The notes under the pieces were generated by a model. It was not told the DNA's origin. It did not search any database and saw only the letters and a list, made by a program, of their open reading frames with translations. A stretch of 6,799 nt of DNA, taken from IMG/VR virus record IMGVR_UViG_2690316278_000009; one strand, given 5' to 3'. Below are positions 2,750 through 3,586 of this stretch, one piece after another. Origin of the DNA: a virus. Its lineage: Duplodnaviria > Heunggongvirae > Uroviricota > Caudoviricetes. The stretch's first letter is position 1. Each line of letters opens with the position of its first letter. Both the position numbers and the translations under genes were made by a program.

Positions 2750-2972
2750 NNNNNNNNNNNNNNNNNNNNNNNNNNNNNNNNNNNNNNNNNNNNNNNNNNN
2801 NNNNNNNNNNNNNNNNNNNNNNNNNNNNNNNNNNNNNNNNNNNNNNNNNNNNNNNTTCCGGCAGAGCCTTATACTGAAATATACCTGGCTCAGGATATTG
2901 TTGAAAATATTTTATGTTTGTCAAAAATAAAAGTTCTGTTAAGTATTGATTGAGTGTTTGTTATACGGTCTA

Positions 2973-3299
2973 ATGGTTTTTTCAGCATTAAATATTTATC
3001 ATTCATATGGTGTGGGTAGAGTGAATATTGATGAGGCGTCGGGGTGTTTCATCCTTAGGCAGCGTATTGATATAGTCAATGCAGCACGAGCAAAGGCCTT
3101 CAGCCGTTTGACAGTTTTGTTCTGTACTCCTGATCGTCTTTCGGGAAGAGACGTTATTATTCTGAATAGTGATGCTATACAGAGGGTTTGCGATGAGTTC
3201 ATGGTTGCTAATTCAGAATTATTTGCTCTTGTTCAGGAGTACAACAGAATAGCCAGGACCTGTGGTATGGATGAACTTCGGATTACTCATCTGGGGTAG
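2973..3299 (+). CDS. Hypothetical protein in the AT-rich cargo segment (108 aa from ATG 2973; 117 aa from TTG 2946)
   Basis: The only ORF of at least 60 aa in the low-GC segment 2856-3300. No convincing Shine-Dalgarno sequence. Nine of 108 codons are AGA/AGG/AUA, plus CGA and CGG. I do not recognise the protein. Confidence 0.3.
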   Translation: MVFSALNIYHSYGVGRVNIDEASGCFILRQRIDIVNAARAKAFSRLTVLFCTPDRLSGRDVIILNSDAIQRVCDEFMVANSELFALVQEYNRIARTCGMDELRITHLG

Positions 3300-3379
3300 A
3301 TACATATCTGGATTATCACCTGTTACGGTAAAAAGTGATTGCTTACTGTTTTTGTGAATGGCATTGCAGCAGCCGGATA

Positions 3380-3586
3380 ATGTCAGTGCTGGCTGACGGT
3401 GTGCTGGTGGCGGGTGTGGTGGTTGTTGCTTTCCCGTTGCTGAAAAAGAAAACGCCAGNNNNNNNNNNNNNNNNNNNNNNNNNNNNNNNNNNNNNNNNNN
3501 NNNNNNNNNNNNNNNNNNNNNNNNNNNNNNNNNNNNNNNNNNNNNNNNNNNNNNNNNNNNNNNNNNNNNNNNNNNNNCGGAAATGA
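3380..3586 (+). CDS. Possible small membrane peptide; only the N-terminal 26 aa are visible
   Basis: ATG at 3380 gives MSVLADGVLVAGVVVVAFPLLKKKTP, a hydrophobic helix followed by a lysine cluster; the rest is masked (3459-3577). No Shine-Dalgarno sequence. Highly uncertain. Confidence 0.15.
   Translation: MSVLADGVLVAGVVVVAFPLLKKKTPXXXXXXXXXXXXXXXXXXXXXXXXXXXXXXXXXXXXXXXXRK

Follow-up and report, generated by a model that had tools for sequence, protein, structure and literature searches.

Lambdoid phages carry their most consequential cargo (including Stx, regulators, and small RNAs [sRNAs]) in the slot between the tRNA array and nanS-p, and such passengers of the late region between the antiterminator gene Q and the lysis genes are known as morons in Hendrix's sense. 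In the Stx2a phage Stx2_95, the order is Q, a hypothetical gene, a methylase gene, three tRNAs, a terminator, stx2A/B, an STnc100-like element, and yjhS/nanS-p. A 2026 preprint reports that the related sRNAs STnc100 and PasD have Q and the gene for the sialic acid esterase as neighbours in prophages of this type (Zhu, Shabalina and Storz; bioRxiv 10.64898/2026.05.13.724894). A further described system, the tciA–tciB pair (encoding TerB and DUF3927 proteins, respectively), was first named in phage P1 and is also annotated in JLK-2012. The locus compared with these systems here lies in a 6,799-nucleotide stretch of DNA from a virus (Caudoviricetes; IMG/VR record IMGVR_UViG_2690316278_000009), hereafter the window, and centres on ORF92, an open reading frame (ORF) of 92 codons at positions 3021–3299 on the plus strand.

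The window covers the part of a lambdoid prophage that serves late regulation and lysis, and its backbone follows the order seen in Stx2 phages: Q, the DNA methylase gene, the tRNA array, the cargo slot, nanS-p, and the lysis genes. The non-backbone stretch between the tRNAs and nanS-p spans 1.5 kb, and the segment containing ORF92 is mosaic cargo in a hypervariable slot of the late operon. The best explanation, in which we have moderate confidence, is that this cargo comprises a real gene of the PHROG 2873 family followed by a remnant of tciB, and that the product of the gene is an accessory factor that binds protein and is made when the late operon is expressed. ORF92 is an ordinary late-region prophage passenger gene, and nothing about it suggests a novel toxin or system.

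An original prediction, made from the letters of the window, had placed a gene of 108 amino acids at 2973–3299. That frame exists, and in this allele it can be read from ATG 2973 (108 amino acids) or, at its longest, from TTG 2946 (117 amino acids); its start, however, was probably misplaced. The conserved start is GTG 3021, which yields a protein of 92 amino acids, the ATG at 2973 probably lying 48 nt too far upstream. GTG is the start codon in all five allele groups for which DNA was retrieved (from E. coli and Salmonella, at 40%–63% amino-acid identity), and the frame is kept in each. Initiation at ATG 2973 or TTG 2946 would add 16 or 25 residues, respectively, that are not conserved as protein, and in one comparison locus (L011), the stretch homologous to this upstream extension lies in a different reading frame, closed by a TGA overlapping the GTG. 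The sequence AGGAG is present 4 nt upstream of the GTG in L013 and L016.

Diverged alleles share 61%, 63%, 52%, and 40% amino-acid identity, the last being that of Salmonella; they encode proteins of 92–95 amino acids that align from MNIDE... to the C terminus, and more distant homologues of 91–106 amino acids possess the same motifs. The most conserved sequence covers the end of the first predicted helix and the adjoining loop (FSRLTVLFxTPDRxSG) as well as the second helix (ANxEL..LV.EYN). Pairwise ratios of nonsynonymous to synonymous substitution (dN/dS; Nei–Gojobori, five alleles, 92 codons) range from 0.13 to 0.36, with dS around 1 or saturated, and the frame is intact in every copy examined. 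At the level of sequence, these comparisons show ORF92 to be a real, conserved gene under purifying selection, and the conservation on which the original prediction had staked its passenger gene is borne out.

Short upstream frames end in a TGA overlapping the GTG of ORF92 (GTGA) in the window (3007–3024, encoding MVWVE), in L011 (3931–4003, 23 codons), and in L013 (about 4970–5003), an overlap that could reflect translational coupling or be incidental. The codons for FSRLTV at 3099–3116 match the STnc100 promoter segment TTCAGACGGTTGACAGTT (2672–2689 and 3736–3753) at 16 of 18 positions. An internal promoter at 3099–3116 was considered and rejected: there is no usable −10 element, the TTGACA is not conserved (CTGACA in other alleles), and the match is probably due to chance. 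Two minus-strand ORFs, one of 38 amino acids at 2890–3006 (annotated in phage mEp460_ev081) and the other of 67 amino acids at 2999–3202, were likewise rejected, the substitution pattern fitting the plus-strand frame. A 92-amino-acid ORF between rem and DUF968 was considered as a paralogue in the same prophage and rejected, as it shows no similarity to ORF92.

The 117-amino-acid reading matches PHROG 2873, a family of unknown function, over its full profile (E = 3.8e-70, 233.9 bits; protein residues 10–117 against positions 1–108 of 108). Pfam, NCBIfam, and PADLOC return no match for ORF92, in agreement with the earlier statement that the protein could not be assigned to a family or function. 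A search of 5.8 billion proteins recovers only close copies and a few diverged groups, and a profile search of 1.84 billion cluster representatives recovers 20 proteins; the ORF92 family is tiny and enterobacterial. The description of the passenger gene as new did not survive, since the gene is already a member of PHROG 2873 and is deposited as a "hypothetical protein" in NCBI and UniRef. Readings of 92, 108, and 117 amino acids are all recorded there as "hypothetical" or "uncharacterized" in E. coli and Shigella (for example, UniRef A0A136WL65_ECOLX), and the exact 108-amino-acid product is indexed in 7259 assembly blocks. The gene is thus not new to the databases but functionally blank, and it is mostly unannotated in RefSeq: almost all ORF92 matches in complete E. 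coli genomes have no RefSeq feature beneath them, and for one other allele the annotation reads hypothetical protein (WP_001017777.1).

Within E. coli, the gene is common. The 279-bp core is found in 1314 of 5426 complete E. coli genomes (approximately 24%), in 1172 of them at ≥99% identity, and the carriers include the uropathogenic E. coli (UPEC) reference strain CFT073 (NC_004431.1, 1342739–1343017) and O55:H7 strain DEC5E. At every locus examined, one neighbour of the gene is Q, the tRNAs, or an AraC-type gene, and holin/lysis genes or nanS-p are on its other side. ORF92 is one of the commonest occupants of this slot, and the fixed GTG start, the purifying selection, and the recognition of its flanking repeats as sRNA genes (see below) make it a tractable target for knockout, overexpression, and pull-down experiments and also correct the annotation of the region.

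The position of the cargo is defined by comparison with Stx2_95 and with an empty site. No stx gene was found between the tRNA array (2234–2618) and nanS-p (4191–6044), as the original prediction had stated for this interval (2618–4191), and its assertion that the site is equivalent to that of the toxin genes also stands, the window being collinear with Stx2_95, which carries stx2AB at the same place. By BLAST, window positions 2517–2659 (tRNA and terminator) map immediately to the left of stx2A, and positions 2662–2749 and 3730–5324 map immediately to the right of stx2B. Because the window aligns with Stx2_95 on both sides of stx2A/B, the 603-bp block at 2856–3458 is placed in the stx-equivalent slot. 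The E. coli O121 locus L004 represents the empty site and comprises tRNAs, terminator, two tandem copies (A and B) of an STnc100 gene, and nanS-p, with no insert; window positions 2517–2749 are 97.4% identical to L004 2783–3015, and positions 3578–6666 are 99.3% identical to L004 3248–6336. The slot is therefore occupied by stx2AB in Stx2_95 and by no insert in L004. The two marks of a moron in the sense of insertion and deviating composition are both present, the block being absent from L004 at a site that is otherwise 97%–99% identical. The block recurs at ≥99% identity in more than 1000 complete E. coli genomes, and because of this recurrence it is more than a chance assembly.

The insert had been described as low in GC, which is correct in that its GC content (31%–47%) is lower than that of the flanks (51%–54%). 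The composition is uneven, however: with Ns ignored, GC amounts to 30.9% in the 165-bp leader (2856–3020), 44.1% in the ORF core (3021–3299), and 47.2% thereafter (3300–3458), compared with 51.6% in the part from Q to the methylase and 53.5% in nanS-p. Only the leader is strongly AT-rich.

Masked bases (Ns at 2750–2855 and 3459–3577) cover both junctions between block and flank. In the other carriers examined, the 603-bp block lies directly 3′ of a tRNA and STnc100 copy A follows the tciB remnant (L003, 3543–3774), whereas here the block comes after the 5′ part of copy A, and only 119 masked bases separate it from the spacer that precedes copy B. This arrangement, with copy A before the block, was not found in the genome, phage, or metagenome records searched; coverage of window positions 2100–4400 by any complete E. 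coli genome does not exceed 86%, gapped exact patterns for the left junction have no match in viral, metagenome, or genome collections, and an exact-protein look-up returned the usual architecture only. Most block carriers also have iraM, which encodes an anti-adaptor with a PmrD fold, on the opposite strand between the sRNA gene and nanS-p/DUF1737 (minus strand; L001 4892–5227, L018 5727–6062, and L023–L031 4775–5110); iraM does not occur in this window.

The insert had been thought to be bracketed by two copies of a module made of a terminator and a conserved element. Both components are present: positions 2665–2749 and 3729–3813 form a direct repeat of 85 nt with 81% identity, and each copy is preceded by a terminator-like hairpin (2633–2650 and 3664–3687, respectively). 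Their interpretation as borders of a moron did not hold, because both repeats are present in L004 without cargo; each module represents the promoter and 5′ part of an STnc100-family (PasD-like) sRNA gene, and both of these genes belong to the backbone. On the plus strand, copy B, promoter region included, occupies 3729–3968, matches Rfam RF02076 over its full length (window 3759–3968, model positions 1–206) with 161 bits against a gathering score of 47, and has its own terminator at 3938–3957. Copy A is represented at 2665–2749 by its promoter region and approximately the first 55 nt of the gene, which continues into the mask at 2750–2855. This fragment alone is too short for Rfam scoring; it is 97.4% identical to L004, in which the corresponding copy is recognised as STnc100 (L004 2961–3151, 136.9 bits). 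Between its tRNAs and nanS-p, L004 holds STnc100 genes in tandem, one scoring 136.9 bits and the other 161 bits. The intrinsic-terminator-like hairpin before copy B (3664–3687, plus strand) has a nine-pair stem and belongs to a backbone spacer that is also present at the empty site. An open frame ending in ...GRIGNDPVEKTLTQIPVLSYRETGIT (3578–3649) stops just before this hairpin and is also found in L004 and L003; it resembles the 3′ remainder of a gene since lost and forms part of the backbone, not of the insert.

A classic moron would bring its own promoter and its own terminator, and this layout, which the original prediction had assumed, is not shown for this allele. The AT-rich leader (2856–3020, plus strand) contains a single weak match to the sigma-70 promoter consensus, at 9 of 12 positions (2901–2928), and the number of such sites in the region (5, against 2.3 ± 1.4 in shuffled sequences) is not clearly enriched. 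A TATCAT element at 2997–3002 is conserved as TATCAT/TATAAT in four alleles, 19–24 nt upstream of the GTG, with no consensus −35 element, and no consensus promoter match was found on the plus strand upstream of the gene in L013, L011, or L015. The alleles L013, L016, and L015 have an intrinsic terminator right after the stop codon. No such terminator lies directly 3′ of ORF92 in this allele, where the tciB remnant comes after the stop codon and the first terminator beyond it is that at 3664–3687.

A possible small hydrophobic peptide had been noted downstream of the passenger gene. The ORF is present, and it is probably a 5′-truncated remnant of tciB (3335–3466, plus strand), read from GTG 3335 or ATG 3380 and running into the mask at 3459, with its last 8 nt and stop codon beneath the Ns and deduced from L003. 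Pfam DUF3927 (PF13064) matches with E = 4.5e-14 and 52.6 bits against a cut-off of 25, the match covering only the C-terminal half of the profile (positions 26–53 of 53; the C-terminal 29 amino acids). Nucleotide identity to the tciB of JLK-2012 is 98.8% and confined to 3367–3451, homology to tciB beginning at 3367. The N-terminal hydrophobic segment (RLAVVALLLFLVVMV in JLK-2012) is replaced by the unrelated MIAYCFCEWHCSS, such that the product is not a full-length TciB; the C-terminal hydrophobic segment is retained in the 43-amino-acid "DUF3927 family protein" that PGAP calls in L003, L005, and CFT073. In the alleles with 63% (L013/14) and 38% (L033–35) identity, the terminator is followed by a TerB-like gene, a DUF3927 gene, and then a holin gene. 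The simplest reading is that a deletion removed the terminator of ORF92, tciA, and the 5′ half of tciB, and would thereby have fused ORF92 to the 3′ half of tciB. An ORF of 35 amino acids downstream of tciB in P1 (tciC) was considered as a homologue of ORF92 and proved unrelated.

For the ORF92 protein, the prediction is a cytoplasmic hairpin of two antiparallel helices without catalytic or membrane features. AlphaFold2, provided with a 10-sequence alignment, models helices at residues 3–35 and 50–81 (predicted local distance difference test [pLDDT] 85.3, predicted template modelling score [pTM] 0.72), the intervening loop (TPDRLSG...) being the less confident part, and fold searches with this hairpin return generic coiled coils only. 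The protein has an isoelectric point (pI) of 5.7, no hydrophobic segment, and a grand average of hydropathy (GRAVY) of +0.13, which is compatible with self-association. It would act by binding another protein, probably once its own copies have assembled into a helical bundle, and would be a soluble accessory factor in phage–host or phage–phage conflict rather than an enzyme or a Stx-type toxin. Given its position 3′ of Q and pR′ and the terminators that bound it, ORF92 may be transcribed along with the lysis genes, mainly through Q-antiterminated read-through, and the universal GTG start would keep its translation low.

Several observations weigh against this account. Three family members are basic (pI 8.6–9.9), and surface properties are thus not uniform. 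Scans of 11 members against Pfam, NCBIfam, and PADLOC, together with a sequence profile run against the PDB, yielded nothing significant on function; within PADLOC-DB 2.0, no family matches the window protein, and one member has a single match to the candidate family HEC-06 (E = 0.009). Expression with the late operon is inferred from position alone, and the weak site at 2901–2928 and the conserved TATCAT/TATAAT leave room for autonomous expression in lysogens. The identity of ≥99% across most carriers reflects recent spread and is uninformative on selection within this allele, and only one of 50,697 sequenced phage records (mEp460_ev081) encodes the gene, which resides mostly in prophages that are possibly defective.

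One rival, which we regard as improbable though worth weighing, is that ORF92 is a true lysogenic-conversion moron tied to prophage-borne YdeO/GadX-like AraC regulators (Psr/PatE type) and transcribed from its own activator-dependent promoter, with the −10-like TATCAT and no good −35. The small protein would be encoded by a target of the regulator, or be a small partner or antagonist that modulates it, and in this window the regulator would act in trans from another prophage. A YdeO/GadX-like gene (195–242 amino acids) does lie directly upstream in three other allele groups, namely L007–L012 (L011, 3186–3911), L013/14 (L013, 4142–4870), and L016 (4109–4696), and the regulator and the small gene look co-inherited because they diverge to a similar degree between L011 and L013 (64% regulator identity; dN of 0.29 for the small gene). 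The conservation of the TATCAT/TATAAT element in four alleles without a consensus −35 and the terminators of other alleles also fit this scheme. However, no AraC gene adjoins ORF92 in the commonest allele (found in this window, in CFT073, and in over 1100 genomes), in the Salmonella allele, or in the allele with 38% identity; a tRNA gene separates regulator and small gene in L016, and adjacency within a recombination hot spot may be mere linkage. With regard to ANR (AraC negative regulator) proteins, members of the 11-sequence alignment matched no relevant NCBIfam or Pfam family, and indeed no NCBIfam family at all, at E up to 1. These libraries should include a model for ANR-type AraC negative regulators. 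More speculative still is the idea that the 92-amino-acid hairpins form a new class of small prophage modulators working with or against the co-diverging YdeO/GadX-like activators (Psr/PatE), or with the TerB/TciB envelope module of the distant alleles. If this were true, an unannotated gene that some 25% of E. coli genomes carry would connect the prophage state with acid-resistance and virulence regulation, or with the control of lysis and superinfection.

Alternatively, ORF92 and the tciB fragment may both be decaying prophage debris that is non-functional here and persists through the recent spread of a cryptic prophage, a view to which we give little credence overall. The locus bears a deletion scar (loss of the terminator, tciA, and the 5′ half of tciB), genes nearby are pseudogenised in many carriers (truncated DUF1737/nanS, truncated lysozyme, insertion sequence [IS] elements), RefSeq leaves the ORF unannotated in carrier genomes, and the near-identity of almost all copies makes selection within the allele unmeasurable. 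Against this, no examined copy has a broken frame, and the between-allele dN/dS over 92 codons, with saturated synonymous sites, indicates that the family as such is functional. Decay is likely for the fragment of tciB, whose product lacks the first hydrophobic segment and has an unrelated N terminus, and unlikely for the 92-amino-acid gene. A distant relationship to GapR/UPF0335-like nucleoid-associated DNA binders was suggested by a PDB sequence search with the family profile, in which four GapR (UPF0335) chains ranked top, with a 47-residue alignment of similar helix-loop-helix pattern (...VYaea-kgnGfDVKvL versus ...VLYsTPDRlSGgDVkIL). Yet the E-values (0.06–0.2) are not significant, most ORF92 family members are acidic (pI 4.6–5.7), and none matches Pfam PF10073. 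Profile–profile comparison by hhalign with 20 UPF0335 proteins gives a probability of 21%, and this homology, very improbable as it is, was rejected on the strength of that result and the mostly acidic members. A real PHROG 2873 gene lying beside a tciB remnant in a mosaic slot thus remains the preferred reading.

The remaining features of the window conform to the prophage backbone. The 3′ part of Q ends at 419, a small ORF starts at 690, and the DNA methyltransferase gene occupies 1048–2193. ARAGORN identifies three tRNAs: one with a CAT anticodon at 2234–2309 (its homologue is tRNA-Ile according to PGAP), tRNA-Arg(TCG) at 2317–2393, and tRNA-Arg(TCT) at 2542–2618 (plus strand; Rfam tRNA, 70.1 bits), which is the last gene of the array and the left border of the slot. 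It is followed by an intrinsic-terminator-like hairpin and T-run (2633–2660, plus strand) with a seven-pair stem containing six G–C pairs and a T8 tail, a counterpart of which also lies 3′ of the tRNAs in the Stx2 phage L020 and at the empty site. The right border is nanS-p (4191–6044, plus strand), a 617-amino-acid ORF for a SASA-family 9-O-acetyl sialic acid esterase as annotated by PGAP and in phages for homologues of 99% identity; it is followed by a holin-region ORF (6117–6410 in its longest reading) and a ydfR-like gene (6415–6729).

Three further observations concern this backbone. A hairpin and T-run, acccgccgccgagcgggtttttta, at 497–524 lies approximately 80 nt past the Q stop codon, where the tR′ terminator of the late promoter region is expected. 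The 3′ end of tRNA-Arg(TCG), the following spacer, and the 5′ part of tRNA-Arg(TCT) are repeated about 139 bp apart (2378–2435 and 2517–2570), and because this flanking segment occurs twice, the mask at 2436–2516 probably hides a further copy of tRNA-Arg(TCT) arising from tandem duplication, in addition to the three tRNAs given by ARAGORN. Finally, between STnc100 copy B and nanS-p, the minus strand carries a leftward promoter-like site (4197 to 4169; ATGCCA-17-GATAAT) and a strong leftward terminator (3997 to 3976), with a sub-threshold OmrA-B-like Rfam match at 3969–4057 (E = 0.17); the minus strand of 3969–4197 may encode an unannotated small RNA.

Compared with the described systems, ORF92 shares with stxAB and other cargo of the slot between Q and the lysis genes its site, its backbone, and a GC content lower than that of the flanks, and in other alleles its homologues are bounded by terminators. 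It differs from Stx in having no relation in sequence or fold and in being cytoplasmic, with no signal peptide, and from moron cargo in that its promoter is only putative and its downstream terminator is deleted in this allele. With regard to tciA–tciB, the order ORF92, TerB, DUF3927, and holin is kept in the alleles with 63% and 38% identity, whereas the window has neither tciA nor the first hydrophobic half of TciB, and P1 and JLK-2012 carry tciAB without the 92-amino-acid gene. The STnc100/PasD prophage sRNA genes, to which the "conserved elements" of the original prediction correspond, are neighbours of the cargo and not cargo themselves, copy A lying upstream of the block here and downstream in all other carriers examined. 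The closest counterpart is PHROG 2873, for which no function, structure, or start codon has been described and whose 108-position profile includes the non-conserved N-terminal extension; ORF92 is a member of this family by a full-length match and is the same as the "hypothetical protein" entries of Enterobacteriaceae in NCBI and UniRef.

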